Origin: an uncultured Candidatus Izemoplasmatales bacterium
GTDB taxonomy: Bacteria; Bacillota_I; Bacilli_A; Izemoplasmatales; Hujiaoplasmataceae
NCBI GenBank assembly: GCA_964483655.1
Contig: CAZABW010000003.1
Coordinates: 12,252-76,251, forward strand
DNA length: 64,000 bases
Direction: 5' to 3'
Position 1 is the first letter of the stretch, and each line of letters starts with the position of its first letter. The position numbers were made by a program, and so were the translations under genes. Below the pieces are notes generated by a model. It was not told the origin of the DNA. It made no database searches and worked only from the letters and a program-made list of their open reading frames with translations. Shown here piece after piece: positions 20,574 to 42,226 of the stretch.

Positions 20574-21021
20574 GATTAACTCGGGGAAGACCACCCGACT
20601 CGTTGAACTTTATGAGCGTGATCAATTAGGGGATGGATTTATCGCTTTTAAAGTGATGAAAGGTCATCTTGTGGAACGGTATGATGCACGACAACTCTCT
20701 TCTCATGAAACGTTTCCTTATGTGATTCGTGATCAATTCGATACGGGAACGAAACCAATCCTTTGTCAAATTGGTCCTTACCGCTTTTATGAAGAAGCAA
20801 TCCGTCGGATTGAACGAGAAGTTCGACGGATGATTGAATACTCGATTGAACCGATTTATTTAGATGAAATCGGGATGTTAGAAATTCAAAAACAAGGCTT
20901 CTATTCCATTTTTCAGGAAATGGTCGATTCCCATTTAGATTGTGTGGTGTCTGCTCGACACGACTTAATTCCTCAAATTGTCGAAACGTTTCATATCAAG
21001 CAGTATAAAATCCTCTCTTAA
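20551..21021 (+). CDS. small P-loop NTPase (THEP1/DUF2478-like)
   Basis: 156 aa with Walker A GKINSGKT at residues 7-14 and Walker B IYLDEIG. 23-nt overlap with the xdhC-like gene. Confidence 0.6.
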   Translation: MIHFVTGKINSGKTTRLVELYERDQLGDGFIAFKVMKGHLVERYDARQLSSHETFPYVIRDQFDTGTKPILCQIGPYRFYEEAIRRIEREVRRMIEYSIEPIYLDEIGMLEIQKQGFYSIFQEMVDSHLDCVVSARHDLIPQIVETFHIKQYKILS

Positions 21022-21032
21022 AGGAGACACTT

Positions 21033-22322
21033 ATGTTTGATTCGGTGATTCGAAATGGGTTATGCTGGGTAAACCAAGCATTTATACCTACTCATGTATA
21101 TGTGAAGGATGGCAAAATTGCCAAACTCTCATCCACGGATTTCGAAGCGAAAACAGCCGTGGACGCGTCTGGATTTTTTGTCATTCCTGGCTTAATTGAT
21201 CCGCATACACATTTTGGATTAGTAGGTAAGAATCAAATCAGTAGTGAAGGATTCCATGAAGGGACCAAGAAAGCTCTTCGGGGGGGGATGACCACAATCA
21301 TCGATTTCTTAGAACCCAGTCAAAGTGTGAATGACATTCTGCAAGCTTTCCACATGCGCAAAGAAGCTGCGATGCATTCTCATTGTGATTACACCTTTCA
21401 TGCATGTTTGAAAGAACCCCAGGATTCTTTAGAGTCCATCGTTGAAACCGTTTCACGATTATCACTGAAAAGCATCAAAGTTTTCACAACCTATTCAGAA
21501 AGCAATCGCCAAATCAGTGATCCAAGTTTATATCAGTTATTAAAAGCGACGAAAGCGAAAGATATTCTCGTCACTGCTCATATTGAGAATGATGAACTCA
21601 TCATCAAAGATCCTATGCTTCCCTATCCGATGTTAGGACAGAGTCGCCCGACTCAAGCCGAAACCTTGGAAGCTTTAAAATTAGCTTCTTATGTCAAACA
21701 AACCCAAAGTCAGTTGTATATGGTTCATGTCTCTTCGGGTCAAACAGTCGTCGAATTGATAAAAAAGTATCCCGAACTCATCCATTCTTCGTTTCATCTT
21801 GAATCTTGTCCCCACTATTTTACGTTTCATGATTCCGTGTACACGAAGCCAAACGGATATTTATATGTCATGGCACCGCCCTTACGGAGCCCGTTGGAAC
21901 AGGAACTACTGATTCAAAATTTCCCTTCCATTGAAACGATTGGGACCGATCATTGTCATTATCCCGCTGAAACCAAACATAAAACCCATTTAGCAGAGAT
22001 TCCCTACGGTGTGGGGGGGATTGAACATAGTTTCGCAATGCTTTACACTCAGTTTGGAAACCAGGTGATTGACAAGATGAGCCGCCATGTGGCGAAGTTG
22101 TTTGGACTCCAACGAAAAGGTCAAATTGCAGAGGGGTTTGATGCCGATTTGGTGTTGTTTCAAAAAATCGACCCTACACCCATTCGATCATCAGAAGAAG
22201 ACATCTATGCGGGTCAAAGTGTCAATATCAAAATCCAACAAACGATATTACGGGGCATCACAGTCATGAAAGATGGTCGTGTAAATCCCCATAAAGGACA
22301 GTTTATTGGAGGGATGCGATGA
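21033..22322 (+). CDS. cyclic amidohydrolase, dihydropyrimidinase/hydantoinase family (HyuA-like)
   Basis: DPHTHF metal motif, SIKVFTTY (position of the carbamylated Lys), GTDH; 429 aa. Confidence 0.75.
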   Translation: MFDSVIRNGLCWVNQAFIPTHVYVKDGKIAKLSSTDFEAKTAVDASGFFVIPGLIDPHTHFGLVGKNQISSEGFHEGTKKALRGGMTTIIDFLEPSQSVNDILQAFHMRKEAAMHSHCDYTFHACLKEPQDSLESIVETVSRLSLKSIKVFTTYSESNRQISDPSLYQLLKATKAKDILVTAHIENDELIIKDPMLPYPMLGQSRPTQAETLEALKLASYVKQTQSQLYMVHVSSGQTVVELIKKYPELIHSSFHLESCPHYFTFHDSVYTKPNGYLYVMAPPLRSPLEQELLIQNFPSIETIGTDHCHYPAETKHKTHLAEIPYGVGGIEHSFAMLYTQFGNQVIDKMSRHVAKLFGLQRKGQIAEGFDADLVLFQKIDPTPIRSSEEDIYAGQSVNIKIQQTILRGITVMKDGRVNPHKGQFIGGMR

Positions 22323-23632
22323 AGACGCTCATTCATGCGACAAGCTATGATTTTGCTCAATATAAGGAAGATCAATATATTACATTTGATGAAACCATTC
22401 TTTCAACTGGACTAATGAAGGACTATATCCCTCAGGGAGAAGAAACCATCGATTGTCAAGGACACCTTGTGTTACCAGGTTTTTGTTTACTCCATACCCA
22501 TATTTACTCCACATTTGCTAGAGGGTTGGTGTTGCCCACCCAGATTAAAACATTTCAAGATACCTTAGATCAAATTTGGTGGAAACTTGATCGCAATTTA
22601 GACCTGTCGATGGTCTATCATAGTGGCATTGTTTTTGCCCATCAAGCCTTACGCCATGGGATTACAACCCTGTTTGATCATCATGCGTCTGGTGCGATTT
22701 TAGGAAGTTTAGATGCTTTGAACCAAGCGGTAGTGAAAACGGCTGGGATGCGTGGATGCTTTTGTTTTGAAACTTCCGATCGTTTTTCAATTCCTGAATG
22801 TATCGAAGAGAATCAGACGTTCTATCAACGTCATCAAGATGCTTTCTCTCGAGGAATGTTTGGACTTCACTCCTCCCTTTCTTTATCAGATGAAACCCTT
22901 TTAGAAGTGAAAAAACAATTACGGGAGATGCCCATTCATATTCATGTGGCGGAGTCTTCTTATGAACAAGCCATGGCGCAACATCATCATCACAAACGAG
23001 CTGTAGAACGCTTAGAAGAGTTTTCCCTCATTCAACCCCATTCGCTTTTAGTTCATGGATTATTCTTAAGCGAGAATGAGAAAAAAATTCTAAAACATAG
23101 ACAGGCTCATGTGGTTGTGAATCCGACATCGAATCAAAACAATGGGGTTGGCTTTCCGACGCCAATCGAATTAAACAATGAGGGCATTCCTGTATTGATT
23201 GGGAATGATGGAATGTCTCAAGCGATAACCCCAGAATATAAATCGTTATATCTTCTCACCAAATTAAAACATTTTTCTCCTGAAGCCTATTCATTGGACG
23301 ATTTGAAATCTTCGATTATTCAAGGATATGCTTATACCAGCCAGTGTTTTAACATTCAAGTTGGACGAATTCAGAGCGGGTATCACAGTGATTTGCAAAT
23401 CATTCCCTATGATTATCCCACGCCGTTGAATCAAGAAAATATCATGGGACATCTCGTCTATGGCATGTTTGATGATTGGCGCCCTCGTGATGTCCTCATT
23501 CAGGGAATCTTTCGTCTCAGAAACGGACAAAACGAGGTTTTATTAGAAACGCTCTATCACCAAGCAAAAGCAAGCGCAGTTGCTTGTTGGAATAAAATCA
23601 AGGAGGATCATCATGCTAACGACGAAATTTGA
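22319..23632 (+). CDS. ssnA: SsnA-like aminohydrolase (amidohydrolase superfamily)
   Basis: 437 aa with LLHTHIYS metal motif, HVAES and a C-terminal GNDG; size and context match SsnA of the E. coli ygf region. Confidence 0.65.
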   Translation: MKTLIHATSYDFAQYKEDQYITFDETILSTGLMKDYIPQGEETIDCQGHLVLPGFCLLHTHIYSTFARGLVLPTQIKTFQDTLDQIWWKLDRNLDLSMVYHSGIVFAHQALRHGITTLFDHHASGAILGSLDALNQAVVKTAGMRGCFCFETSDRFSIPECIEENQTFYQRHQDAFSRGMFGLHSSLSLSDETLLEVKKQLREMPIHIHVAESSYEQAMAQHHHHKRAVERLEEFSLIQPHSLLVHGLFLSENEKKILKHRQAHVVVNPTSNQNNGVGFPTPIELNNEGIPVLIGNDGMSQAITPEYKSLYLLTKLKHFSPEAYSLDDLKSSIIQGYAYTSQCFNIQVGRIQSGYHSDLQIIPYDYPTPLNQENIMGHLVYGMFDDWRPRDVLIQGIFRLRNGQNEVLLETLYHQAKASAVACWNKIKEDHHANDEI

Positions 23633-24704
23633 TGGATTCATATTACAAAACCCTTTGCTTCCGGCTTCAGGACCCTTAACAGGAGATGTTGAGAAACTCC
23701 TTTTCTTACAAAATGCAGGATGTGGAGCGTTAGTTACGAAAACCATCTCGACTGCATCTCCTCATATTCCGAAACCATCGATTTATGGAGATAAAGAGTA
23801 TGTTTTTAACTCTGAGTTATGGTCTGAAGTCGATTATCAAACATGGATTGATGAATATCTACCTGCTTTAGTCAAGCAGAAGAATCGCCCTCTCATCGTG
23901 AGTGTTGGGTATTCGAAAGAAGATATGGCGTTTTTAATTCCCAAACTTGATCCGTTTGCGGATGCTTTCGAAATTTCCACTCATTATGTCGGGATTGACT
24001 TATCTGTGATTGAAGCGATTGTAAAAACGATTCGTGCTCACACAGCCAAACCGATTTATATGAAGATTAGTCCCCATATTCCTTCCGTTGAAGCATTTGC
24101 AAAAGTGATTGAACAAGCTGGGGCGAATGGAATTGTGGCGATTAACTCCTTAGGACCTTCGATGAAAATCAACGTGAAGACTCGTTCGATTGAATATGCA
24201 TCAGACCACCATTTTGTTTGGATGAGTGGACCGGTCATCAAACCCATCGCATTAGCAACGGTGTATCGGATTAAACAGGCTTGTCCGAATTTAACTGTTA
24301 TTGGGGTTGGCGGGATTAAATCCGCTGAAGATGTCTTAGAATTTATCCTTGCTGGGGCGGATGCCGTGCAGATGCTCTCTGCTGCACTGATCAAGGGAAA
24401 AGGACTTTATAAAAAAATCATCAAAGATTTACTCCCGACGATGGAACTTCATGGGTTTCACTCCATGGATGAAGTGAAACAAGCTCGTCTTTCACAACGA
24501 CTTTCCTACGAGGGGGTTGTCCCTACCTTAGTCGAAGAAGAATGTATTCGCTGTATGTTGTGTAAGGAAGTCTGCCCTTATTATGCAATTTCCTATTCCA
24601 GCAAGATAGAAATTGACCCACTGATTTGTGCGCGATGTGGGTTGTGTGTGAGTAAGTGTCCGACCCATGCGTTAAAGGGGTATTATGATGAAATCAAAGA
24701 GTAA
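23613..24704 (+). CDS. PreA/dihydroorotate-dehydrogenase-like flavoprotein with a C-terminal 2x[4Fe-4S] domain
   Basis: N-terminal NPLLPASGPL and GVGGI TIM-barrel flavin motifs. C-terminal CIRCMLCKEVCP and CARCGLCVSKCP. Confidence 0.7.
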   Translation: MLTTKFDGFILQNPLLPASGPLTGDVEKLLFLQNAGCGALVTKTISTASPHIPKPSIYGDKEYVFNSELWSEVDYQTWIDEYLPALVKQKNRPLIVSVGYSKEDMAFLIPKLDPFADAFEISTHYVGIDLSVIEAIVKTIRAHTAKPIYMKISPHIPSVEAFAKVIEQAGANGIVAINSLGPSMKINVKTRSIEYASDHHFVWMSGPVIKPIALATVYRIKQACPNLTVIGVGGIKSAEDVLEFILAGADAVQMLSAALIKGKGLYKKIIKDLLPTMELHGFHSMDEVKQARLSQRLSYEGVVPTLVEEECIRCMLCKEVCPYYAISYSSKIEIDPLICARCGLCVSKCPTHALKGYYDEIKE

Positions 24705-26784
24705 TATTAGCGATTCCATTCCAAAACGGGACGCCTCGAGTAAAATCAAAGGACAAGCGAAGTATGTTGGCGATCTCGTCATGGATGGGATGCTCTACGC
24801 GAAGACCCTTCGATCGACGCAAGCTCACGCTCGCTTTACCTGTCATTACCCTTCTTTGCCGGAAGGGTATTTCATCGTCGATGAACAAGATGTTGTGGGT
24901 ACGAACATTGTTAAGATTATATATGATGACATGCCATTTTTTGCTTCTCAAGTTGTTCGTCATGTTGGCGAGCCAATCGCTTTAGTCATTGGCAAAGACA
25001 AGGAAGTCATTTTATCTATTCTTGCCCAAATTCAAGTCACGTATGAAGAACTCCCGGCTGTGTTTGAATGGACCCATTCTGTGGTCCACTATCAATTTCA
25101 AAAAGGAAACCCTGAGTTCGTTTTTTCTCAAGCACATGCCGTTTTTGAACGAACGTATCAAACGGACTATCAAGAACAAGCATACATTGAACCGCAAGGG
25201 ATGCTGGCATATCCGGAAGGAGACAAAATTACCCTGACAGGGTCCATCCAATGCCCGTATTATGTGAAAAACGCATGTCTCCAAGCATTGGGTTGTGAAG
25301 AACATCTTGTTCGTGTCATCCAAGCGGAGGTAGGAGGAGCATTTGGAGGGAAAGAGGAATATCCTTCCATCATTGCTTGTCAACTAGCTACGGCGGTTCA
25401 TAAAATAAAACAGCCGATCCAATTGTTGTTTGAACGAGAAGAAGACATCCTTTCAAGTACCAAACGACATCCCTCAAAGACGACAATGAAAGCTTATTTA
25501 GATGCTTCGAACCAATTGCTTGGACTTGAGGTTCATGTTGGCTTGGATGGGGGGGCGTATATTGGTTTATCTGGCGTTGTTTTAAGTCGCGCTATGATTA
25601 TATCCAGCGGCGTGTACACCATTGCCAACTTAAAAGTAAGTGGCGATGTTTACCAAACGAATACTGTTCCTACAGGAGCATTTCGGGGGTTTGGGGCCCC
25701 GCAAATGGTCTTTGCCATTGAGATGTTTATGGCTCATCTAGCAAAACACCTACATCAAGATATCGATGATTTTAAATATAAGTATTTAGCCAAACAGGGC
25801 GATAAAACATCTACGAGTGGCACGTATCGTGATCCCATTATTTTACCAGACTTAATCCAACAAGCCAAAATCTTAGCGGATTATGATCGTAAGAAAAGAG
25901 ACTACAACTTTTATCCCAAGGGTCATGGCATTGGGATGAGTTTAGTCTACCATGGATGTGGATTCACTGGAAGTGGAGAAGCAAAGCATATCCACGCAAA
26001 GGTACGTTTAGAAAAAGATGAATTCGATGATGTCTGGATTTATACAGCAGCTGTTGATATGGGTCAAGGGATTAAAACAACTTTACCCAAAATAGTCAGT
26101 CATATCTTAAATCGACCCTATGAAACGATTCATTTTGATGCGCCAGATACCGACTTTGTTCCCGATTCTGGACCAACTGTCGCTTCACGAACCACCATGA
26201 TTGTAGGAGGATTGGTGGCTCAAGCCGCAAAAGAATTACTCGATCAGTGGCAAACAGGCATCCGTCAAACAGTCGAAAAATCATATGTCCAGCCCAAGGA
26301 TATCGTTTGGGATGATGAAACCTTCCAAGGAGATGCTTATCCTGCTTATTCCTTTGGGGTTGTGATTGTGGAAGTTTTTGTCGATCCGGATACCTATCAA
26401 GTAGAAGTCAAACAAGTGTATTCGGCGTATGATATGGGGAAAGCGATTGATGAGCGAGTGGTGCTTGGTCAGATTGATGGAGGCCAACTACAAGGCATTG
26501 CCTATGGCTATCTTGAAGTAATGAATCACCAACAAGGTCGAATATTACAAAAGAATTTCACTGATTATATCATCCCCACCGCAGTCGACACGCCATCGAT
26601 GGAACGCGTGATCCTCGACAATCCTTATGCCTTTGGTCCCTATGGAGCGAAAGGAACGGGGGAGTTAACCTTAGTAGGAGGAGCGCCTGCGGTAGCGCTG
26701 GCGATTGAACAAGCGATTCAACGAGAAGTCAATCGAATCCCGATAACACCTGAACGGATTGGAGCGCTGATTCATGATGAGTAA
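24685..26784 (+). CDS. xanthine dehydrogenase molybdopterin-binding subunit (XdhA-like)
   Basis: 699 aa with EVGGAFGGKEE, GAFRGFGAPQ and YGAKGTGELT (catalytic Glu). Confidence 0.85.
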   Translation: MMKSKSNISDSIPKRDASSKIKGQAKYVGDLVMDGMLYAKTLRSTQAHARFTCHYPSLPEGYFIVDEQDVVGTNIVKIIYDDMPFFASQVVRHVGEPIALVIGKDKEVILSILAQIQVTYEELPAVFEWTHSVVHYQFQKGNPEFVFSQAHAVFERTYQTDYQEQAYIEPQGMLAYPEGDKITLTGSIQCPYYVKNACLQALGCEEHLVRVIQAEVGGAFGGKEEYPSIIACQLATAVHKIKQPIQLLFEREEDILSSTKRHPSKTTMKAYLDASNQLLGLEVHVGLDGGAYIGLSGVVLSRAMIISSGVYTIANLKVSGDVYQTNTVPTGAFRGFGAPQMVFAIEMFMAHLAKHLHQDIDDFKYKYLAKQGDKTSTSGTYRDPIILPDLIQQAKILADYDRKKRDYNFYPKGHGIGMSLVYHGCGFTGSGEAKHIHAKVRLEKDEFDDVWIYTAAVDMGQGIKTTLPKIVSHILNRPYETIHFDAPDTDFVPDSGPTVASRTTMIVGGLVAQAAKELLDQWQTGIRQTVEKSYVQPKDIVWDDETFQGDAYPAYSFGVVIVEVFVDPDTYQVEVKQVYSAYDMGKAIDERVVLGQIDGGQLQGIAYGYLEVMNHQQGRILQKNFTDYIIPTAVDTPSMERVILDNPYAFGPYGAKGTGELTLVGGAPAVALAIEQAIQREVNRIPITPERIGALIHDE

Positions 26785-27262
26785 AACAATCGATTTTTAT
26801 CTCAATGGGGTCTTAGTTCGTCATCCTTTTGAGCCCACTCTCCGTTTGATCGATGTTCTCCGTGACCATCACCATCTTCATGGAACCAAAGAAGGGTGTG
26901 GCGAAGGGGAATGTGGGGCTTGCTCGGTATTGATTAACAATGAACTTCATCTAGCTTGTTTAACGCCACTAGGAAATGTTCGCCAAGCCCATGTCCAAAC
27001 CATTGAAGGCTTTTCTACCCAACCGGAGTTTTCTATCATTGAGCAGGCGTTTATTGACGCCGGAGCGGTTCAATGTGGTATTTGTACCCCGGGAATGGTG
27101 ATGGCTGTTTATGCCCTTTTAAAGGAAAACCCTAAACCAACACAAGACCAAATCAAAATCGCCTTAAGTGGAAACCTATGTCGTTGTACAGGGTATAACA
27201 TGATTATTGAGGCGGTTCAACTCGCGATGAAAAGGGGGGAAACCTTATGGCAGAACATGTGA
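26774..27262 (+). CDS. xanthine dehydrogenase [2Fe-2S] subunit
   Basis: GCGEGECGACSV and CGICTPG...CRCTGY motifs; 162 aa. Confidence 0.85.
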   Translation: MMSKTIDFYLNGVLVRHPFEPTLRLIDVLRDHHHLHGTKEGCGEGECGACSVLINNELHLACLTPLGNVRQAHVQTIEGFSTQPEFSIIEQAFIDAGAVQCGICTPGMVMAVYALLKENPKPTQDQIKIALSGNLCRCTGYNMIIEAVQLAMKRGETLWQNM

Positions 27263-28104
27263 TTCCCAAGACCCTTTTAGAAGCGCTAGAATTATTAGAA
27301 CAATCGCCCTATACCATTCTAGCAGGGGGAACAGACGTATTGGTGAAAGCACGTAGATGGGCAGGAACGAAGCGAACCTTCGCTCATCCTGCGATGTTCT
27401 TGCGTGAGATTGAATCATTACACACGATTCAATCGGATTCCCACATCTTAGAAATAGGCGCTTGTGTGTCTTTATCGACAATTGCAAAACACCCTCTCAC
27501 TCCGGCTTTGTTAAAGGAAACCATCACGGAAATAGCCTCACCAGCCATTCGCAATATGGCGACGTTGGGCGGGAATATTGCCAATGCTTCTCCAGCAGCG
27601 GATGGGGTTTTAGCCCTTTGTGCTTTGCAGGCAAAAGTGTTTATCCAATCAGCACAAAAAACTCGACTAATAGCCGTCGAAGAGATTGCCCTAGGACCTG
27701 GAAAAACGCATCTTGCGGCGAATGAACTGATTACAGCGATACATATCCCTTTGCTGGTAGACGATTTTCATGCATTTTACAAAGTTGGAACGAGACGAGC
27801 GGATGCAATTTCGAAAGTTGCTTTGGCGGGATTCGCACAGTTTCATCATCATAAAGTTTCGGAATGGCGACTCTATTTTGGAGCGGTTGGTAAAACCATC
27901 CTTTGGGATCATGAGTTAGATTTTTCGATGTTGGGGAAAACCAAAGAGATGATTTATGACGAGATGGAGGACATCATTTCCAAGTATGCACAAGTTCCCA
28001 CTCCGATTGATGACCAGCGTTCCACGAAACAATATCGCCAACTTGTCGCACGAAACCTAGTCAAAAAATTCATTCGGGAATGTTTAGGTGAAGTAGATGG
28101 ATAA
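27247..28104 (+). CDS. xanthine dehydrogenase FAD-binding subunit (XdhB-like)
   Basis: ILAGGTDVLV and ATLGGNIANASPAAD motifs; 285 aa. Confidence 0.85.
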   Translation: MAEHVIPKTLLEALELLEQSPYTILAGGTDVLVKARRWAGTKRTFAHPAMFLREIESLHTIQSDSHILEIGACVSLSTIAKHPLTPALLKETITEIASPAIRNMATLGGNIANASPAADGVLALCALQAKVFIQSAQKTRLIAVEEIALGPGKTHLAANELITAIHIPLLVDDFHAFYKVGTRRADAISKVALAGFAQFHHHKVSEWRLYFGAVGKTILWDHELDFSMLGKTKEMIYDEMEDIISKYAQVPTPIDDQRSTKQYRQLVARNLVKKFIRECLGEVDG

Positions 28105-29806
28105 AACGACAAGAGACATTATTTTAGGATTACAACCAGCAAAACTTGTACTCAAACATGCCTCTGTGATTCATGTTCATGATGGCACGATTGAAGTTGC
28201 TGATATTGCCATTCATAAAGGAAAAATCGCGGGAATTGGGGAGTATTTTGGAATAAAGGAAGTGGATTGTACTGGTCTTTTCGTTGCGCCGGGGTTCATC
28301 GATGGGCACGTTCACATTGAATCTTCGATGCTCACTCCCAGTCGCTTTGCAGCGCTCGTTTTACCGTTTGGAACGACTTCGGTCATCGCCGATCCGCATG
28401 AAATTGCAAATGTGTGCGGAGTCGAAGGGCTTCGCTTTATGATCGAGGATGCAAAAAGAGCTAATCTCGACATTCACTTTATGATTCCTTCGTGTGTCCC
28501 AGCAACCCCCTTTGAAACAGCAGGGGGACAAATCCGAGTCCAAGATATCCAAGCGTGGAAACAAAAAAAGAAAGTCCTAGGCTTAGGAGAAGTCATGGAT
28601 TACCCGAGTGTCTTATCGCTAGAACCCACGATGATGGCAAAGATTAAAGCGATGAATTCTCGCGTGATTGACGGGCACGCTCCTTCCTTGCAAGGGAAAG
28701 AGTTATCGCTTTACCACGCGATTGGAATCCAAACCGATCATGAAGCCATCACGCAAGAAGAAGCGAAAGAGCGCGTGAAAATCGGGATGTATGTTCACCT
28801 TAGACAAGGATCTCAAACGCAAAATGTACTGGATTTACTTCCTGCCGTCACGCCGGATAACCATCATCGATTCTTATTCTGTAGCGACGATTATCATCCT
28901 GCAGACATACTCGCAAAAGGACATATCAATCACCATGTGAATCTAGCGATCGAGTTTGGAATTCCACCCATGCATGCCATCCGAATGGCAACCATCAATG
29001 CAGCTACTTGTTATGGACTTCATGATGTTGGTTCGATTGAAGTAGGAAAACAAGCGAATTTCATTTTGTTTGATTCCCTGACACACATCGTTCCTAAAGC
29101 CGTGTATTATCACGGAAAACAGGTGAACCAAATTCCTGAAGTACCTCCTTTAAAGAAACCAGATTTTCCAAGTGTCTTTGATACGATTCATCTACCGAAG
29201 CAACCCTTGGATTTTACCCTTCCAGTCTCTTCTCCTTATGTACATGTCATGGGATTGGAAAAGAATAATGTCACAACAACCAATGAAAAGCATCAAGTAA
29301 CCTTAAAAAATGGCTTCTTCGAAAGTGATATCTCACGAGATTTCCTGAAGTGTTGTGTGGTCGAACGTCACAGTGCTTCCGGGCGGATTGGAAAAGCCAT
29401 TGTCAAAGGCTACGGGTTAAAACAGGGAGCGATGGCGATGAGTATCGCCCATGACTCCCATAATATCATCACCATCGGTGTGGATGATGTCTCGATGGCC
29501 ACTGCAGTAAAGCAAATCGAGTCGATAGGTGGAGGGATTGTCATCGCCAATCAACAAGAGATTGTGGCCTTCTTACGCCTTGAAATCGCTGGGATTATGA
29601 CTCAAAAAGATGCCATCCAGGTTAGAAACACCCTCCAAAATATGGAAGAAATCATACGTGAGATGGGGGTCCATCCAGAGATTCAAGATCCCTTCTTACA
29701 ATTAGCATTCTTAGCTTTACCCGTGATTCCGAAGTTGAAACTGACCGATTATGGCTTATTTGATGTCGAAAGGTTTCACTGGACACCTTTAGAATGGGAG
29801 GATTAA
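28097..29806 (+). CDS. ade: adenine deaminase
   Basis: 569 aa with PGFIDGHVHIESS and the overall length of Ade/AdeC. 8-nt overlap with the FAD subunit gene. Confidence 0.8.
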   Translation: MDKTTRDIILGLQPAKLVLKHASVIHVHDGTIEVADIAIHKGKIAGIGEYFGIKEVDCTGLFVAPGFIDGHVHIESSMLTPSRFAALVLPFGTTSVIADPHEIANVCGVEGLRFMIEDAKRANLDIHFMIPSCVPATPFETAGGQIRVQDIQAWKQKKKVLGLGEVMDYPSVLSLEPTMMAKIKAMNSRVIDGHAPSLQGKELSLYHAIGIQTDHEAITQEEAKERVKIGMYVHLRQGSQTQNVLDLLPAVTPDNHHRFLFCSDDYHPADILAKGHINHHVNLAIEFGIPPMHAIRMATINAATCYGLHDVGSIEVGKQANFILFDSLTHIVPKAVYYHGKQVNQIPEVPPLKKPDFPSVFDTIHLPKQPLDFTLPVSSPYVHVMGLEKNNVTTTNEKHQVTLKNGFFESDISRDFLKCCVVERHSASGRIGKAIVKGYGLKQGAMAMSIAHDSHNIITIGVDDVSMATAVKQIESIGGGIVIANQQEIVAFLRLEIAGIMTQKDAIQVRNTLQNMEEIIREMGVHPEIQDPFLQLAFLALPVIPKLKLTDYGLFDVERFHWTPLEWED

Positions 29807-29807
29807 T

Positions 29808-31046
29808 GTGAACCTACAAGGATTTGTTTGTACAACCTGTGGAAAATTTTATTCTTCCTTACCTCAAGGAATGATTTGCGAGGATTGTACACAACAAGGT
29901 ATTTTGGATGTTGTGTATGATTATCAAGCAATCGCAAAGGAATTTCATCCAACAACTCTTCGGTTGAATCCAGATTCTTCGATGTGGCGTTATCTTTCCT
30001 TACTTCCCGTAAAAGAAAAACCAAAACAGGGATTACATGTCGGGGGAACTCCGTTGTATTCATCCCAAGCCTTCGCCAGCCAAGTAGGACTGAAGTCGCT
30101 TTACATTAAGGATGATGGGCTCAATCCTACCGGATCCCTGAAAGACCGTGCCTCCATCGTTGCTTGTGTGAAGGCCATCGAAGAAGGAAAAACGATTCTT
30201 TGTTGTAGTTCGACAGGAAATGCGGCGTCCTCTTTAGCTGGGAATGCGGCGAAACTGGGATTGCAAACCGTCATCTTCGTCCCGAAGCGCATCCCGATCG
30301 GGAAACGAACTCAATTGCAATTATTTGGTTCGCACGTGATTGTCGTAGATGGGGATTATAAGGCTGCATTTCAGTGTTCCAAACAAGCGATTGAGACCTT
30401 TGGCTTTTACAACCGCAACGCGGCAATTAATCCGTTCCTTGTCGAAGGAAAGAAGACAGTGGCTTTAGAAATTGCTGAACAAATGCAGTTTCAAAACATA
30501 GACTGGGTCGTTGTTTCAGTAGGCGATGGCTGTACCATTGCAGGAGTGTATAAAGGATTTTACGATCTGTTCCAGTTGGGGTTGATAAAATCGATTCCCA
30601 AACTTTTAGGGGTACAAGCATCCGGTTGTCGGCCTTTCGTGGATGCTTGGGAACATCAAAGAGATGTACAAGAAAGCGAAGAACAAACCTTAGCTGATTC
30701 GATTGCAGTCGGGATTCCTAGAAATCCCAAGAAAGCAATCCGAGCCATCCAAGAGTCGAAAGGATGTTTTGTGAGTGTTTCGGATGAGGCGATTCTTTCA
30801 ACGATGGCTTTCCTAGGAAAAACAGAAGGTTTATTCGTAGAACCAGCCAGTGCTGCCGGATTCGCAGGGTTAATCGAAGCGTTTCAAAAAGGCATCATCC
30901 GATCGGAAGAGACAGTGGTTGTAATTAATACTGGAAATGGATTAAAAGATATTGAAAATGCGAAAAAGGCGGTTTCAGAGCTCGATATCACACCAAATGA
31001 TTGGGAGTCTGTGAAGCAGCTTTTCCATAAAGAAGGGATACTATGA
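29808..31046 (+). CDS. threonine-synthase-like fold-type-II PLP enzyme with an N-terminal Cys4 zinc ribbon
   Basis: GTG start 1 nt after the ade stop. CTTCGKFY...CEDC ribbon and NPTGSLKDRAS (PLP-Lys motif of the ThrC family). Confidence 0.65.
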   Translation: MNLQGFVCTTCGKFYSSLPQGMICEDCTQQGILDVVYDYQAIAKEFHPTTLRLNPDSSMWRYLSLLPVKEKPKQGLHVGGTPLYSSQAFASQVGLKSLYIKDDGLNPTGSLKDRASIVACVKAIEEGKTILCCSSTGNAASSLAGNAAKLGLQTVIFVPKRIPIGKRTQLQLFGSHVIVVDGDYKAAFQCSKQAIETFGFYNRNAAINPFLVEGKKTVALEIAEQMQFQNIDWVVVSVGDGCTIAGVYKGFYDLFQLGLIKSIPKLLGVQASGCRPFVDAWEHQRDVQESEEQTLADSIAVGIPRNPKKAIRAIQESKGCFVSVSDEAILSTMAFLGKTEGLFVEPASAAGFAGLIEAFQKGIIRSEETVVVINTGNGLKDIENAKKAVSELDITPNDWESVKQLFHKEGIL

Positions 31047-32410
31047 GAACAATACCATTTGGCCCAACCTATGAAGAAATGTTGGACCCAAACAAACAAG
31101 ATCAACGAATCAAAGGGTTGAAAGAACAACACAAAAACGACGAACTACACCCGATTCATCTGTTCGACATCACCTGGAAAAATGCGGAAGGAATGGTTCG
31201 TAAAATCATCTTACCCAAAGAACTGACAGGCGTGGATTGCAATATCGTTGTCTTATTGGGATGCTACTTCCCATCTGGTTCTCACAAGGTGGGACCGGCT
31301 TACTCAACCTTAATTGAAGGATGTGTCGATGGAACGATCATTCCAGGCGAGCATACGATTTTAGGTCCTTCGACAGGGAATTTCGGGATTGGCGTATCGT
31401 ATATTTGTAATCTGATGAAATACGATGCAATTGTGATTATGCCAGATAATATGTCGAAAGAACGATATCTTCGAATTGAGAAGTATGGAGCGAAACTTGA
31501 CTTAACTCCTGGAACCGAAAGTGATGTCATCTTGACCCTTGAACGGACGTATGAGTTAAAGAAAAACCCAAAGAATCGGACTTTAGCTCAGTTTGAACTC
31601 ATGCCCAATTATCGCTTTCACCGTTATGTAACAGGCAATTCCTGTGTTGAAGCAGTGAAAGGCATTGGTAACTCGAGAATTGCATGTTTCACCTCCGCTC
31701 CTGGTAGTGCGGGAACCTTAGCGGCAGGAGATGAAATCAAAGTTCATTTTCCTGAAGCGAAAGTCGTCGCGATTGAACCTTATGAGTGTTCTACTTTAAC
31801 CGATGGCGGCATTGGCCAACATCGGATTGAAGGCATCGGGGATAAAATGTGTACCTTAATTCATAACATCATCAATACCGATTTTGTTTGTATGGTGGAA
31901 GATGATGACTGTGTGAAAGGATTAAAGATTCTTCATGACGCTCCTCATTTATTACAAGAAATTGGCATCTCAAAAGCGACATCATTGGCAATGGTTGACC
32001 TCTTTGGAGTTTCAGGAGTCTGCAATATTTTAGGCGCAATCAAAATGGCGAAATACTTAAAACTCGGCCCGAATGAAAACGTAGTTACAATCGCGACCGA
32101 CGGGTTTGACCGCTATGATTCAGTGATTCAAGATCTCAATCGACGCGTGTTAGAAACCGAAGATTTCGTCTTGCGTCGATGGTTGAAAGACGTCTTCTGG
32201 CAAGCGGACGTTTCCAAAATATTAGATACGAGATCAGAGGAAGCCAAAAACCGCTTATATCTTCAAAAAGAACGAGATTGGCTGAAGTTTGGATATACGT
32301 TGGATTATCTGAATGCAATGAAACACCTTGATTTTTGGAATCAAGAGTATGAAAAGATCCACCATTATAATGAAGCGATACTTTCCTTGCGAAAGGAGCC
32401 ACAAGAATGA
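31043..32410 (+). CDS. fold-type-II PLP enzyme, cysteine-synthase/TrpB/OrtB-like, 455 aa
   Basis: [11 protein letters not shown] (Lys motif), PSTGNFGIG (phosphate loop) and [12 protein letters not shown] overlap with the ThrC-like gene. Confidence 0.6.
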
Positions 32411-33639
32411 ACTATGCTCAAATCTTAGCTTGTGCAAAAAAATATGAAAAAGAAATGGTGAAGTTTCTTCGAGATATGATTGCGATTCCGAGTGAATCAT
32501 CCCAAGAAGAACGCGTCATTCAACGAATCAAAGAAGAAATGATTCATGTTGGCTTTGATCGTGTGGAAATCGATCCCATGGGAAATATCTATGGCTATTT
32601 AGGTTCAGGAAGCCATCTTATTGCGATGGATGCGCATATTGATACCGTTGGCGTTGGGTTATTAAGCAACTGGACTGTCGATCCCTATCTGGGAGCGGAG
32701 GATGAGCACTTTGTCTATGGACGCGGCGCAAGTGATCAAGAAGGCGGAATGGCTTCAATGGTCTATGCGGCTAAAATCATCAACGAACTCGACTTAAAAG
32801 AAGACTACACCCTACTCGTAGTTGGTTCTGTTCAAGAAGAAGACTGTGATGGACTTTGTTGGCAATACATCATCGAAGAACAAAAAATTCGTCCCGAGTT
32901 TGTGGTAATAACGGAACCAACTAGTCTGAATATCTACCGCGGTCACCGGGGTCGGATGGAAATCAAAGTCACAACACAAGGAGTGAGTTGCCATGGCAGT
33001 GCTCCTGAACGAGGCGATAATGCGATTTATAAAATGGCGCGTATCATTCAAGAAGTCGAGGCACTTCACCCTACCTTACAGAGTGACCCCTTTTTGGGAA
33101 AAGGAACGTTAACTGTTTCAGAAATTTTCTTTTCTTCGCCCTCTCGGTGTGCAGTAGCGGATGGGTGTTCGATTTCCATCGATCGACGCTTAACGAAAGG
33201 CGAAGATGATACTTTAGCTCTTTCTCAAATCCGAAATTTACCGAGTGTCAAACAGTATGGGGCTCAAGTGGAAATGTATGACTATGCCCGTCCCTCTTAT
33301 ACGGGATTGGTATACCCAACAAAGTCTTACTTTCCGACCTGGGTGTTAGAGGAAGAACACCTTGCTTGCCAAACCTTAAAACATAGTTATATCCAACTCT
33401 TTGAAGAACAACCTAAAATCGATAAATGGACGTTTTCTACGAATGCAGTATCGATTATGGGTCGATTTGGGATTCCTTGCATTGGCTTTGGTCCTGGACA
33501 TGAAGTCGAAGCCCACGCCCCCAATGAGAAAACCGTAAAACTTGAATTAGTCAAAGCCGCCGCGATGTATGCGACGATTCCCAGCCAGTATTTATCGATG
33601 CTTCAACCCAAAGGAGAGTCATATGGAACCACTATTTAA
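32407..33639 (+). CDS. ygeY: M20-family metallohydrolase, YgeY-like
   Basis: 410 aa with [15 protein letters not shown] and EEDCDG motifs of ArgE/DapE/YgeY-type peptidases; adjacent to a YgeW-like gene. Confidence 0.7.
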
Positions 33640-34606
33640 AGGAAGACACTTTATTACCCTAGAAGAATGGACAAAAGCAGAAATTGATACCTTACTCGAT
33701 GTTTCCAAAGATTTAAAATATAAGTTTCATCATAATGTCCCTACCCCTTATCTCACCAACAAAACAGCTTTCTTAATGTTCTTTGAGCAATCCACTAGAA
33801 CGCGTAATTCGATGGAATCGGGTCTCGCTCAACTAGGGGGTCATGCGACGTTTTTAGATACTTCGATGATGCAAATCTCTCATGGAGAGTCCGCAAAAGA
33901 TACCGCAATTATCTTATCTTCCTATGGTCATGGAATCGCATGTCGAAACTGTTTTTGGCAAGTTGGCAATCAATATTTACGGGAAATGGCAGCGCATTCG
34001 AGTGTGCCGATTATGAATTTACAGTGTGATTTATATCATCCTATGCAAGCGTTAGCAGATTTAATGACGATTCAAGAAGTAAAGAAAACAACACAAAACT
34101 TGAAAGTGTCGATTATTTGGGCCTACGCAACCAGCCATAAAAAACCGATTAGTGTACCCTTATCGCAAATCTTACTATTCCCAAGGTATGGCATGGACGT
34201 GACGCTTGCTTATCCAGAAGGCTATCCCTTACCCGATTGGGCAATCGAGAAAGCCCGGAAAAATGCACTTGAGAATGGCGGATCCTTCCGCATCACCCAC
34301 AACATGGAAGAAGCCTATCGTGACGCCGATATTGTCATTCCAAAAAACTGGGGTTCATGGGTTGCCAATCAATCGACTCAAGTGGTCGATGATCAACTAA
34401 TCAAAAATAAAGCATGGAAGTGTACCCAAGCGATGATGGATTTAGCTGCTCCAGATGTGTGCTATATGCATGCCCTTCCTGCAGACCGAGGCAATGAAGT
34501 CGAAGATGCCGTCATCGACGGGCCCCATTCGATTGTTTATCAAGAAGCAGAGAATCGTCTTCATACAGCGAAAGCGGTCATGGCGATGACGATGGGAAAT
34601 AAGTAA
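33623..34606 (+). CDS. ygeW: YgeW-like carbamoyltransferase (aspartate/ornithine carbamoyltransferase superfamily)
   Basis: STRTRNS carbamoyl-phosphate motif, and HALP in place of the canonical HCLP, near the C-terminus. ATG at 33623 follows aaaggagag. Confidence 0.7.
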
Positions 34607-34611: not shown

Positions 34612-34650
34612 AAAAAATGGAGCTAACGGGGGACCGTTAGCTCTCTTTTT
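34612..34650. terminator. bidirectional intrinsic terminator
   Basis: GAGCTAACGG-gggga-CCGTTAGCTC, flanked by AAAAAA and TCTTTTT. Ends the 18-gene operon and the convergent deaminase gene. Confidence 0.85.
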
Positions 34651-35134
34651 AATAAATGGTTTTCGCCTGACTCTGGTACTCCTCAAACAGCACCAAGCAA
34701 TCCTCACGATGTTCGTTTTCTAAATCGAGGATGGTTCGATCTTGCATTCCACCGTTGATAAACTCATACATAAAGTCATCACGGAAACCGATATGAGCCG
34801 CATCCTTTGGCGTGGCGCCATAATAAACTTTCTTGATATTCGCCCAGATAATGGCGCCTAAACACATCGGACAGGGATAACAGGTGGTGTATAGGATACA
34901 ATCAGATAAATCATGAGTCCCTAAATTTTTACTCGCCAAACGAATGGCATTGACTTCAGCGTGAGCTGTGGGATCTTTATCTCCTAAAACGGAATTGGAT
35001 GCGACAGCTACTAAATCTCCATGTTTATCAATAATCGCTGCTCCGAAGGGTCCACCAATATTTAGATTCATGGTTTGACGTGCTTTTTCAATCGCGAGAC
35101 GAATGATTTCTTGGCCTTGGCTATTCGGTTTCAT
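34649..35134 (-). CDS. guaD: guanine deaminase (CDA-fold, GuaD-type)
   Basis: 161 aa with HAEVNAI and PCPMCLGA zinc motifs. Size matches B. subtilis GuaD; purine operon context. Confidence 0.7.
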   Translation of the reverse strand: MKPNSQGQEIIRLAIEKARQTMNLNIGGPFGAAIIDKHGDLVAVASNSVLGDKDPTAHAEVNAIRLASKNLGTHDLSDCILYTTCYPCPMCLGAIIWANIKKVYYGATPKDAAHIGFRDDFMYEFINGGMQDRTILDLENEHREDCLVLFEEYQSQAKTIY

Positions 35135-37448: not shown

Positions 37449-37475
37449 AGCGACGCGCAGGCGTCGCTTCTTTTA
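37448..37475. terminator. bidirectional intrinsic terminator
   Basis: AAGCGACGC-gcag-GCGTCGCTT followed by CTTTT; sits between convergent genes. Confidence 0.8.
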
Positions 37476-39263
37476 TTGGATTTTGGAGAAAATACTGAAT
37501 TGATAGCCTGGAATTTGAACGCTTCCATCGCAAATGCAAGTCTCTTTTGTCCAATGATTCCACAGTTTCCCTTGGAAATTCCTGTGTTCAAACGTAGAAG
37601 GATTGGGACTGCGATTGAGGAAAAAGAAGACGTCTTCTTTTTGGAAAACAAGCAGCGAATCGTGTAAGGATAGAAAGGTTAAATCAAGCGATTGGAATGC
37701 ATCAAGTTGAGTATATAGACGATTTAAGGTTTGGAAAAAATGCTTCAGCTCTTGATGTTGCTTGCTTTCTTCCCACATCATGGGTCTTCTATTTTGGGGG
37801 TCTTTTCCACCCATCAGTCCCACTTCATCACCATAATAGACAGAAGGCATACCCGGTAAAGCATACATCATGAAAAACGCTTGCATGACGGAAGGGACAT
37901 GTTTTTCAAAAAGGGTCAAAATTCGTGCTAAGTCATGCGAACCAATGAGATTATACAAAACAACACGTTGTTTTTCTGGATAGTAGTGAAGGTAATCTGT
38001 TAGAGCATCTTGAAAATCAGGAATCCTCATTGTGGAATGCGGGTGAAAGAACTCGGTTAACAACGTTGTTATCGGATAGTTCATGACACTGTCCCATTGA
38101 TCACCTTGTAAAAAGGAGTTGGTTAGATCCCATGATTCCCCAATCAAACAAGCGTTTGGAGAGTGAGATTTGATTGTTTTTCGAAGCATTCGCCAAAAAT
38201 CATGACTAATTTCATTGGCTACATCTAAACGAAACCCGTCCACATTGGCTTGGTCTAGCCAATAAAGCGCGACTTCTTGGAAGGTTTTTTGGATAAGTGG
38301 ATGATCACAATTCACTTTTGGCATCCGATAACTAAAGGCAAACGTTTCATAGGGAATATGATAGTTGACTTCAAAGGGGTTCGTCTGTTTGAAATTTTCC
38401 AAAGATCTTAGATCGATGGTTTCTGATTTCATATAGAACGCTGAGTAATAGGGACTGTTCTTCCCCTTTTGAATCACATCTTGGAAGAAAGGGTGGTGAA
38501 TGGAAACATGGTTGAAGACCAAGTCTAATACAATGCGAATCCCACGGAAATGAGCTTGACGGGTCAGTTCTTGCAAATCTTCTAAACTACCAAAGAGTGG
38601 GTCAATCGTGAAATAATCGATGGTGTCATACTTGTGTGCAGACAAACTTTGAAAGATGGGTGTGAGATAAATCCCATTAAAACCCAACCCTTGAAGATAA
38701 TCGAGTTTGGCCGTGATTCCTTTGAGATTACCACCATAAAATTGATCATTTCGGGGTTCTTGTTGATTCCAGTCACAAAGTCCGACGAAGCGATTATCAA
38801 CATTACAAAATCGATCGGGAAAGATTGAATACCATATCGTTTTCTTCATCCATTCCGGCGCGAGAAAATCGTTTTGAGGGAGTACATAGGGGATATTGAA
38901 GTAATGACCAAGAAAATATTTCCTGTCGGGGTTAGCCCATGTATCGATAAAAGCAAGCGATCCCACTACATAACGACCATCGATGAAAAATGCATATTTT
39001 GCACGTTTGGTTGGTAGGGATACGGTAATTTCATAATAATCATACGTTTGAGTGTTCGCAATCAAAGAAAGCGGCGAACAAGGGTTCTGTTCGCCGCTCC
39101 AAACCATTTCATGATTCGATGTGCGGTGCCAATCAAAAGGATCGCCGTAGAGGAGTTCGACTTGAGAACAAATGGATGCTTTGGTTTTCAGTCGAATCTT
39201 GACGATATGATCCGTGACAATCCACGTGTCAACACGGGGATCATGAAAGAAATCAGAGAGCAT
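37473..39263 (-). CDS. cytoplasmic GH13 enzyme (neopullulanase/cyclomaltodextrinase/maltogenic amylase type)
   Basis: 596 aa with no signal peptide. GH13 regions VLDLVFNH, GFRLDVANE, IGESWD and SHD. Confidence 0.8.
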   Translation of the reverse strand: MLSDFFHDPRVDTWIVTDHIVKIRLKTKASICSQVELLYGDPFDWHRTSNHEMVWSGEQNPCSPLSLIANTQTYDYYEITVSLPTKRAKYAFFIDGRYVVGSLAFIDTWANPDRKYFLGHYFNIPYVLPQNDFLAPEWMKKTIWYSIFPDRFCNVDNRFVGLCDWNQQEPRNDQFYGGNLKGITAKLDYLQGLGFNGIYLTPIFQSLSAHKYDTIDYFTIDPLFGSLEDLQELTRQAHFRGIRIVLDLVFNHVSIHHPFFQDVIQKGKNSPYYSAFYMKSETIDLRSLENFKQTNPFEVNYHIPYETFAFSYRMPKVNCDHPLIQKTFQEVALYWLDQANVDGFRLDVANEISHDFWRMLRKTIKSHSPNACLIGESWDLTNSFLQGDQWDSVMNYPITTLLTEFFHPHSTMRIPDFQDALTDYLHYYPEKQRVVLYNLIGSHDLARILTLFEKHVPSVMQAFFMMYALPGMPSVYYGDEVGLMGGKDPQNRRPMMWEESKQHQELKHFFQTLNRLYTQLDAFQSLDLTFLSLHDSLLVFQKEDVFFFLNRSPNPSTFEHRNFQGKLWNHWTKETCICDGSVQIPGYQFSIFSKIQ

Positions 39264-39264
39264 G

Positions 39265-42057: not shown

Positions 42058-42197
42058 AGAGACCTCCTTGTTTTCGAACTCATTATAGCATGCGAAAAAA
42101 CAAGCGACAATCATTTTGAAATAGAAAAAGGCGTTTGGGAACTGACACCGTTACCATATTGTGTAATAGGTTACAATTTTAGTAAATTGCCAACTCC

Positions 42198-42226
42198 TTG
42201 CAATGAAAACCCTTTAGTGATAAGAT
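42198..42226 (+). promoter_or_regulatory. sigma-A promoter of the maltodextrin transporter operon
   Basis: TTGCAA (42198-42203), 17-nt spacer, TGa-TAAGAT (42218-42226). Confidence 0.55.

Follow-up and report, generated by a model that had tools for sequence, protein, structure and literature searches.

How does reductive purine degradation end in a gene cluster where the terminal lyase of the known pathway is not found? Li et al. and Liu et al. (2025) established a reductive uric-acid pathway in E. coli, C. sporogenes and C. difficile. In their route urate is converted through 2,8-dioxopurine, its dihydro form and ureidomethyl-hydantoin to 2,3-diureidopropionate, which passes through a mono-ureido intermediate to 2,3-diaminopropionate (DAP) and is finally turned into pyruvate by YgeX. 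The question is raised by a 64-kb stretch of DNA from an uncultured Candidatus Izemoplasmatales bacterium (assembly GCA_964483655.1, contig CAZABW010000003.1, positions 12,252 to 76,251), hereafter the window. At 14966-35134 the window carries a complete reductive (2,8-dioxopurine) purine-degradation cluster, which encodes together an XdhD-type molybdoenzyme, a UacX-like ring reductase, SsnA, a HyuA-like hydrolase, YgeY and a carbamoyltransferase. We searched the window by tblastn with the E. coli proteins of the ygeV-uacT region (locus L005), and YgeX gave just a 25% match over 175 amino acids (aa), inside a gene for a threonine synthase (ThrC)-like protein. That gene and the cysteine synthase (CysK)-like gene behind it encode a pair of pyridoxal 5'-phosphate (PLP) enzymes. 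We propose that these two enzymes form a PLP module dedicated to the amino-acid end of a distinct and widespread variant of the reductive purine/uric-acid pathway, a reading to which we give a probability of roughly 0.4. The variant would be defined by three co-inherited parts beside an ordinary YgeY: a transferase resembling ornithine transcarbamylase (OTC), a long CysK-like protein and a zinc-ribbon ThrC-like protein.

The two genes are tightly coupled to each other and to their neighbors. The ThrC-like gene (29808-31046, plus strand) begins with GTG, 2 nt past the stop codon of an adenine deaminase gene (29804-29806), with a GGGAGG Shine-Dalgarno sequence 6-8 nt 5' of the start. Its 412-aa product has an N-terminal Cys4 zinc ribbon (C8-x2-C11...C24-x2-C27) and the motif NPTGSLKDRAS. 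The CysK-like gene (31043-32410, plus strand) begins with ATG and encodes a 455-aa protein with the motif HRIEGIGD. Both proteins match Pfam PALP (E 9e-79 for the ThrC-like and 2e-20 for the CysK-like protein). An ATGA at 31043-31046 overlaps the TGA stop of the first gene with the ATG of the second, and another at 32407-32410 couples the second to ygeY (32407-33639, plus strand), whose product scores 667 bits on TIGR03526 (cut-off 321) and is 65% identical to E. coli YgeY. An initial annotation, made by eye from this DNA, had described two fold-type-II PLP enzymes at 29808-32410, joined by ATGA and directly upstream of a YgeY gene, the first ThrC-like with a Cys4 ribbon, and had seen no OrtA-like small subunit. 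All of this stands; because the CysK-like gene overlaps its neighbors on both sides, there is no room beside it for an OrtA gene.

This arrangement recurs across genomes and is not chance. A homologue scan covering one genome per species found 359 loci with a relative of the CysK-like protein, and our locus counts rest on the closest 80 of these (L006-L085). Upstream sequence was long enough to judge in 75 loci, and in 74 of them the ThrC-like gene directly precedes the CysK-like gene. Of 79 loci, 45 have a ThrC-like stop that overlaps the CysK-like start by 1-8 nt, and in most of the remainder the two lie no more than 8 nt apart. The CysK-like gene sits inside the same purine cluster in 80 of 80 loci, which are labelled Izemoplasmatales, Acholeplasmataceae, Mariniplasma, Erysipelotrichaceae, Vallitaleaceae, Gemmiger, Desulfitobacterium, Desulfosporosinus, Acididesulfobacillus and others. 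These 80 loci, like the 80 metagenome loci of a ygeX-seeded comparison set, are the best matches to a single query and are phylogenetically non-independent.

The association with purine genes survives deep divergence and gene rearrangement. A Cloacimonadota purine cluster with YgfK, YgeY, three OTC-like transferases and carbamate kinase encodes a CysK-like relative at 34% identity and a zinc-ribbon ThrC-like relative at 39%, the latter keeping the VGDGC, ADSIAV and PRN motifs. There, xanthine dehydrogenase (XDH) genes separate the ThrC-like gene from the CysK-like gene, which adjoins the transferase/kinase block. We regard it as very likely that the pair works in the purine pathway.

Neither member of the pair is YgeX, the diaminopropionate ammonia-lyase also called DpaL. 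For the CysK-like protein the DpaL models PRK08206 and TIGR03528 give 26.6 bits (cut-off 276) and 18.7 bits (cut-off 532), and DpaL models fall outside the 25 best families of the ThrC-like protein, the lowest of which scores near 57 bits. The loop that reads TTDGNHGRG in YgeX of E. coli and Desulfitobacteriaceae reads SSTGNAASS in the ThrC-like and PSTGNFGIG in the CysK-like protein, and TDGNHG is absent from both, as the initial annotation had suspected when it saw DpaL motifs in neither. The aspartate of the T-D-G-N-H-G loop, Asp120 in the E. coli enzyme, serves as the base of DpaL. The pair and YgeX of E. coli and C. sporogenes have in common that they are fold-type-II PLP enzymes encoded beside ygeY and a carbamoyltransferase gene, and YgeX performs the terminal step on the amino-acid intermediate. 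They differ in being non-orthologous (the partial match of about 25%, with DpaL scores far under the cut-offs), and the pair comprises two proteins found with an OTC-like transferase, whereas YgeX is one protein found with a YgeW-type transferase.

The pair probably stands in for YgeX in most loci, although it is not a plain ygeX substitute. The initial annotation had placed it in the slot where ygeX is expected. This holds for 75 of the 80 loci, in which no ygeX occurs within 10 kb of the pair, but not for five Desulfitobacteriaceae-type loci, where a genuine ygeX is present, its product 50-55% identical to that of E. coli and bearing the TTDGNHGRG loop. ThrC-like, CysK-like and ygeX genes occur together in L043, L047, L059 and L067. 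L043 has the order uacT-ssnA-ThrC-like-CysK-like-ridA-ygeX, then a sigma-54 regulator gene and ygeY-transferase-yqeA-hyuA. L057 (Desulfitobacterium sp. Sab5) has the pair and no ygeX. In L073, a Desulfosporosinus metagenome-assembled genome (MAG), ssnA is followed by a clean 145-nt spacer and then CysK-like-ridA-ygeX, with no trace of a ThrC-like gene in 21 kb. Across these three states the CysK-like gene is constant, and the ThrC-like protein and YgeX look interchangeable in these loci. A RidA/YjgF-family gene lies directly 5' of ygeX in L043 (11564-11941), L059 and L073 and is never seen in pair-alone clusters.

The pair co-varies with the type of carbamoyltransferase. The transferase gene beside ygeY in the window (33623-34606, plus strand; mechanical open reading frame (ORF) from 33569) most likely starts at the ATG at 33623, behind AAAGGAGAG, which gives 327 aa as in its relatives. 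The initial annotation had called it YgeW-like. It is OTC-like and not a YgeW equivalog: its best hidden Markov model (HMM) is TIGR00658 for OTC (257 bits against a cut-off of 281), the YgeW models give 197 against 453 and 181 against 500, and it is 37% identical to E. coli YgeW. An OTC-like transferase, 65-87% identical to that of the window, is present in 63 of the 64 pair loci with enough downstream sequence, and the YgeW type in none. Among the 80 ygeX-seeded loci, 22 carry a transferase, in every case of the YgeW type (60-69% identical to E. coli YgeW), and no OTC-like transferase, ThrC-like gene or CysK-like gene occurs in the set. The Desulfitobacteriaceae clusters are mosaics in which ygfK, ssnA, hyuA and xdhABC are E. 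coli-like and the transferase and the pair window-like; the transferase and the pair therefore move as a unit. In the Cloacimonadota locus L087, three OTC-like paralogues stand in a row at 3317-6866 (65%, 38% and 36% identical to the transferase of the window), followed by carbamate kinase, a hint that phosphorolysis there may extend to more than one ureido group.

The ThrC-like protein has the fold of threonine synthase. Its nearest solved relatives are class-I threonine synthases (E 4e-63 to 2e-55, identity 32-36%). An AlphaFold2 (AF2) model with a mean predicted local distance difference test (pLDDT) score of 89.8 and a predicted template-modelling score (pTM) of 0.91 matches 2zsj, 2d1f and 1uim by Foldseek at E ~1e-29 to 1e-30 and target-normalised template-modelling (TM) scores of 0.83-0.86. 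The best fold matches are the ThrC structures 2zsj and 2d1f, and serine/threonine dehydratases follow after ThrC. The thrC model TIGR00260 gives 211 bits, over its cut-off of 167, and the best full-length model, PRK08197, gives 280 against 303. The PLP lysine and the cofactor-binding motifs are retained, and the NPTGS(F/L)KDR lysine motif and STGN loop are common to the ThrC-like protein and class-I ThrC (1uim/1v7c, 2zsj, 2d1f, 6cgq). We also considered cysteate synthase and rejected it: TIGR03844 (CapA2) gives 108.5 bits against 325, and the CapA2 structure 9k3c is just 19% identical.

The substrate end of the ThrC-like active site is different. Five solved ThrCs, which we aligned to check residue numbering and conservation, all keep the blocks S-T-G-N-T, N-S-x-N-x-x-R-x-E-G-Q-K-T and G-N-x-G-N. 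These blocks contain T88, S155, R160 and N188 (T. thermophilus chain numbering), which are invariant in the five and which we take, from the substrate-analogue complex 1v7c, to be the ligands of the substrate phosphate. Their counterparts in the window protein are A139, A206, L211 and D240. Across 20 ThrC-like relatives A139 and D240 never vary and A206 hardly does, and leucine is the majority residue at 211. The family also has a new invariant aspartate, Asp297, in place of the threonine in TIATAI, and P-R305-N306-P in place of the P-x-S-W of ThrC, with R305-N306 invariant. C8, C11, C24 and C27 of the added zinc ribbon are invariant in the same relatives. Judged by these residues, the family has lost the ThrC phosphate site, and because all four ligands are replaced, the name threonine synthase is probably a misannotation. 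Loss of an arginine and three hydroxyl or amide donors, with a gain of two aspartates, would be expected if the distal group of the substrate had changed from phosphate to ammonium or ureido. The genomic setting differs as well: purine catabolism here, hom-thrB-thrC for class-I ThrC.

The long CysK-like proteins are an uncharacterised family built on a CysK core. The best solved relatives are CysK enzymes at E ~1e-27, with identities to CysK/beta-substituted-alanine synthase (BSAS) enzymes of 21-29%. The AF2 model (pLDDT 78, pTM 0.85) finds CysK/BSAS enzymes at the top of its Foldseek matches and matches only their cores, with O-ureido-L-serine synthase at rank 25. The core, at about residues 60-360, is preceded by a conserved 60-aa N-terminal segment, interrupted by an insertion near residues 287-320 and followed by a helical C-terminal extension (358-451, 95 aa), in contrast to the single domain of about 300 aa in CysK and CysM; neither extension has a match among solved structures by Foldseek. 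K82, S110-T111-G112-N113, Q183, G221-S-A-G-T225 and S324 are retained and align with CysK motifs. Of these, the PLP lysine (K82), the Asn loop (S110-N113), the Gly-rich phosphate loop (G221-T225) and the serine that bonds pyridine N1 (S324) are invariant in 18 relatives from several phyla, over which mean column identity is 83%. Identity is 72-75% from Izemoplasmatales to Desulfitobacterium. The rim of the active site departs from CysK, with NYRFHR for NPxNPxxH and GIGDKM for GIGAGF. The core fold and cofactor motifs are also those of DcsD, an O-ureido-L-serine synthase (3x43), which shows that a CysK fold can bind a ureido-bearing beta-substituent.

Known family models do not claim the CysK-like protein. 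It scores 125 bits on cysK (cut-off 351), 126 on cysKM (344), 85 on cysM (394) and 66.6 on SbnA (350), and with the CBS and DpaL models included no score exceeds 126 bits, against cut-offs of 344-510. Exact database look-up of the window protein returned no record, and an exhaustive search of representatives yielded just 99 below E 1e-30. Ten full-length relatives at 27-41% identity carry generic names only and match the same sub-threshold CysK models in NCBIfam; we call the family uncharacterised because these names are uninformative. The cysteine-synthase side of the initial annotation's cysteine synthase/TrpB comparison is borne out by sequence and fold. The TrpB side is not, with no TrpB family in the NCBIfam matches and no TrpB chain among the 60 best PDB matches. 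Two further ideas were dropped. A family-wide metal site at C94, C122, C249 and C270 is unlikely, since these cysteines, invariant in purine-type members, are not conserved in relatives at 27-41% identity. Nor did longer relatives give an informative Rosetta-stone fusion: P0163 duplicates a plant CysK in tandem, P0203 has the look of a frameshifted sequence of high GC content, and the ABC-transporter ATPase domain of P0178 is unrelated. A long member of 562-571 aa (P0142/P0298) is annotated in an anaerobic metamonad eukaryote, Aduncisulcus paluster.

Two readings would give the pair a conventional role. According to the first, the names in public sources, which label relatives of the pair threonine synthase and cysteine synthase, are right, and two biosynthetic enzymes ride in a purine operon to assimilate its nitrogen or carbon. 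The thrC score above cut-off and the labels themselves speak for it; the four replaced phosphate ligands, a CysK-like score of about a third of the cut-off and the purine-cluster location in every one of the 80 loci speak against it. No homoserine kinase, homoserine dehydrogenase or serine acetyltransferase was noticed among the family-listed neighbors, although the loci were not searched for these. We consider this reading highly improbable; a threonine or cysteine biosynthesis context, which the initial annotation had kept in view, is not what the loci display. The second reading makes the CysK-like protein a PLP thiolase of the OrtB type, which would use CoA to break a C-C bond in a keto-amino acid, in line with the thiolytic cleavage raised in the initial annotation. 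Only the size of the protein (about 450-470 aa) and its PALP fold speak for this. Against it, no OrtA-like ORF is present where the genes overlap on both sides, CoA-dependent genes are missing from the loci, a beta-keto amino acid does not occur in the pathway, CysK enzymes are the best homologues and no OrtB model appears among the NCBIfam matches. The chance that this reading is correct is close to nil.

The route we prefer follows from the kind of transferase that accompanies the pair. YgeW is a knotted transferase. The N-acetyl- and N-succinyl-ornithine transcarbamylases, to which it is structurally related, use substrates acylated on N-alpha, and this kinship fits 2,3-diureidopropionate because that substrate is N-alpha-carbamoylated. 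An unknotted enzyme of the OTC type should require a free L-alpha-amino acid, and albizziin (2-amino-3-ureidopropionate) is the C3 homologue of citrulline. We therefore propose that YgeY acts first. HyuA would yield 2,3-diureidopropionate, YgeY would take off the 2-ureido group to leave albizziin, and the OTC-like transferase would phosphorolyse albizziin to DAP and carbamoyl phosphate. The ThrC-like enzyme, its phosphate pocket rebuilt with two aspartates, would then assume the role of YgeX and convert DAP to pyruvate by beta-elimination of ammonia. The CysK-like enzyme would supply an extra step needed by the OTC route, for which our preferred guess is D-to-L inversion of albizziin or DAP. 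What the data themselves show is the identity of the two proteins, their conservation, genomic context and co-variation, and the altered active site; the substrates and reactions are ones that we infer.

Stereochemistry is the reason for this guess. An OTC-derived transferase should require the L form, as should a lyase derived from ThrC, and inversion is the only PLP reaction on albizziin known to us that would spare the ureido group for the transferase. Li et al. describe E. coli HyuA as D-stereospecific and report that YgeX of E. coli accepts either isomer. The intermediates have been proposed to have the R configuration, and the stereochemistry of the pathway is acknowledged to be an open question. 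D-to-L inversion is therefore the simplest candidate for the CysK-like step. Two-base racemisation has a precedent within fold type II (PMC6411801), and fold-type-II racemases such as serine racemase and aspartate racemase (5ybw) share the PLP fold with the pair and are seen among the structural neighbors of the ThrC-like model. They belong to the dehydratase branch, not the CysK branch, and we found no sequence feature that marks either the ThrC-like or the CysK-like protein as a racemase, so that the resemblance is functional speculation.

The proposed route accounts for the presence of two enzymes, the co-variation with the transferase, the ThrC-like/ygeX interchange and the placement of the CysK-like gene in Cloacimonadota. 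Its parts differ in strength. The pair together probably covers the YgeX step, and the chances that the ThrC-like enzyme is the lyase are about even. An epimerase or racemase function for the CysK-like enzyme is a tentative assignment, more doubtful than plausible.

A different division of labor would place the two enzymes in series. The CysK-like enzyme would replace the beta-amino group of DAP or the ureido group of albizziin with water or sulfide, giving serine or cysteine, and the ThrC-like enzyme would act as a serine dehydratase or cysteine desulfhydrase that releases pyruvate, with sulfide recycled. This stays close to a suggestion in the initial annotation and draws on normal CysK-clade chemistry, for which beta-replacement is the rule. 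The closest sequences and folds are CysK/BSAS, the structural matches include O-ureido-L-serine synthase, which handles a ureido group, and H2S-producing CysK homologues, and the ThrC-like model resembles serine/threonine dehydratases after ThrC. Expression data lend it some weight: in X. coldseepsis zrk13 the whole cluster (G4Z02_01105-01195), both PLP genes included, is markedly upregulated with thiosulfate and is also upregulated in deep-sea in-situ incubation (PMC8397711). The supplement of that paper contains no table naming these genes. Yet the series would spend two enzymes on the work of one lyase with no energetic gain, and it leaves unexplained both the co-variation with the OTC-like transferase and L073, where the CysK-like gene is kept with ygeX and no ThrC-like gene. 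A cationic or ureido group would also be a better partner for the two new aspartates of the ThrC-like pocket than a hydroxyl or thiol would. We think the series unlikely.

The homologous H. nucleasis zrk29 cluster (HF295_00920-01005) is induced by DNA/RNA (PMC10470597), and its "threonine synthase" is 58% identical to the ThrC-like protein of the window. Metatranscriptome contigs cover short stretches of the two genes with very little depth, which is at best weak evidence that they are transcribed.

Relatives outside purine clusters raise the prospect of an obligate partnership. In L086 a CysK-like relative at 41% identity stands divergently beside a ThrC-like gene. In L172 a relative at 40% overlaps an upstream gene for a 504-aa PLP protein with an N-terminal Cys-rich segment, and genes for a TRAP transporter and a radical-SAM protein lie next to this pair. 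In L174 the long CysK-like gene stands by itself, and more distant members occur in unrelated contexts. The two proteins might thus form an obligate hetero-oligomer that converts DAP or albizziin to pyruvate, one subunit catalytic and the other activating, gating or channelling the aminoacrylate. Such a complex would fit the conserved stop/start overlap, the way a long CysK-like gene stands beside another PLP gene in three settings with no relation to one another (purine clusters, L086 and L172), and the Cys-rich N-terminus of the partner in purine clusters and L172. It would also fit the unusual conservation of the CysK-like protein, with its structured extensions that match no solved structure, and the finding that ridA goes with ygeX and never with the pair alone. 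Both proteins, however, keep the PLP lysine and all cofactor-binding motifs, the genes are non-adjacent in Cloacimonadota, and L073 and L174 have a CysK-like gene without a ThrC-like one. We rate a hetero-oligomer as distinctly unlikely.

Several observations weigh against the two-enzyme module and OTC-type route that we favor. We know of no racemase in the CysK clade, and beta-replacement is typical of CysK enzymes. The co-variation with transferase type could reflect common descent or block co-transfer instead of chemistry. The interchange argument comes from about six related loci, with the state of CysK-like plus ygeX seen in one MAG, and the absence of ygeX was scored within 10 kb of the pair, not genome-wide. 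The non-purine adjacency in L086 and L172 fits two independent steps no better than it fits an obligate partnership. Thiosulfate induction of the X. coldseepsis cluster is unexplained by the models proposed and hints at sulfur chemistry. Published E. coli schemes disagree on which ureido group YgeY removes, and if it removes the 3-ureido group, the albizziin/OTC logic weakens.

The remainder of the cluster supplies the upstream chemistry. All genes from 14966 to 34606 lie on the plus strand, as assigned by Pfam, NCBIfam and tblastn with the E. coli proteins. The first block holds mocA (14966-15538) and an XdhD-like enzyme (36.5% identical to E. coli XdhD) with an FAD subunit (15535-16335), a 2Fe-2S subunit (16236-16787) and an Mo subunit (16718-19096). 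An ORF without a Pfam or NCBIfam match (19093-19728), an XdhC/YqeB-like maturation factor (19725-20573) and an NTPase-like ORF with a weak NTPase_1 match (20551-21021) follow; the two small ORFs of this molybdoenzyme maturation block recur in related loci (for example L006, L022 and L071). Next come a HyuA-like cyclic amidohydrolase of the D-hydantoinase/dihydropyrimidinase family (21033-22322; TIGR02033 222 bits against 393; 27% identical to E. coli HyuA) and an SsnA-family aminohydrolase (22319-23632; PRK07203 332 bits against 444; 31% identical to E. coli SsnA). A UacX/PydA-like reductase (23580-24704; Pfam: a DHO_dh domain and two [4Fe-4S] clusters) takes the place of YgfK, which is found at the same position in some related loci; the UacX concept comes from Li et al.

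A second xanthine-dehydrogenase-type enzyme lies at 24685-28104, with an Mo subunit (24685-26784), a 2Fe-2S subunit (26774-27262) and an FAD subunit (27247-28104), all assigned by Pfam and NCBIfam. The window thus holds two three-subunit XDH-type enzymes (14966-19096 and 24685-28104), both of which score under every equivalog cut-off. The first, XdhD/XdhA-like, probably serves as the 2,8-dioxopurine enzyme, and the second, more divergent one probably oxidises hypoxanthine and xanthine. Adenine deaminase (28097-29806; TIGR01178 582 bits against a cut-off of 472) then leads into the pair, ygeY and the transferase gene.

A gene on the minus strand closes the cluster. It encodes a 161-aa deaminase of the cytidine-deaminase fold (34649-35134; dCMP_cyt_deam_1 E 4e-25), and a gene of this family stands at the same place in L002-L004. 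NCBIfam weakly suggests TadA for the window protein. Wasmund et al. noted two purine deaminases in these loci. The protein is probably the small guanine deaminase that accompanies such clusters, its guanine specificity being our reading of this setting.

Set beside the published urate cluster (xdhD-ygfM, ygfK/uacX, ssnA, hyuA, ygeW/uacY, yqeA, ygeY, ygeX), the window has the same order of chemistry and common homologues in XdhD, UacX, SsnA, HyuA and YgeY. It differs in having an OTC-like transferase for YgeW, the PLP pair for YgeX and no carbamate kinase: tblastn with YqeA found no match in the 64-kb window. A transferase expected to form carbamoyl phosphate is thus encoded in the window without a carbamate kinase, and yqeA lies within 10 kb in 9 of the 80 related loci. 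No riboswitch for purine or xanthine turned up in front of the cluster in an Rfam scan. Elsewhere in the window, a lysine riboswitch (RF00168, 64.6 bits) lies at 50548-50720 on the plus strand, 5' of ORFs starting at 51188, and a block for starch and pullulan utilisation (37473-47624), unrelated to the purine cluster, encodes enzymes of the alpha-amylase family, a pullulanase and an ABC transporter for sugars. Matches to the window are found in metagenomes of anaerobic digesters and sludge.

The reductive purine pathway is known; this terminal module adds two enzyme families that are uncharacterised and stand a fair chance of bringing new chemistry. The module is undescribed in the two 2025 pathway papers, in the commentary on them and in the Izemoplasma papers cited here, and neither pathway paper mentions threonine-synthase-like or cysteine-synthase-like genes. 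The neighborhood survey of Li et al. scored YgeX by Pfam PF00291 near ssnA, so the genes of the pair would count as YgeX. Wasmund et al. noted the deaminase-XDH loci of Izemoplasmatales and did not address the PLP genes.

A large group of anaerobes, about 359 species-representative genomes, thus has a different terminal module, consisting of an OTC-like transferase and two PLP enzymes. The group includes seafloor DNA degraders (Izemoplasmatales), digester bacteria, Desulfitobacteriaceae and Cloacimonadota, as well as organisms labelled rumen and gut Erysipelotrichaceae. Should the proposed role be right, it would correct thousands of annotations that now read "threonine synthase" or "cysteine synthase" and make alternative parts available for engineered urate-lowering probiotics. 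It would also bear on which ureido group is removed first and on the stereochemistry of the C3 intermediates. The question can be tested directly, since the cluster is present in strains already in culture (X. coldseepsis zrk13, H. nucleasis zrk29 and Desulfitobacterium spp.).

We see a minor but real chance that the long CysK-like family catalyses a reaction new to the CysK clade, whether stereoinversion of D-albizziin or D-DAP or an activity that arises only in a hetero-oligomer with the ThrC-like partner. If so, Izemoplasmatales, Acholeplasmataceae, Erysipelotrichaceae, Desulfitobacteriaceae and Cloacimonadota would use a stereochemically or mechanistically distinct OTC-type branch of anaerobic purine degradation, and the two-gene module would have been reused for other substrates elsewhere, as in L086 and L172.

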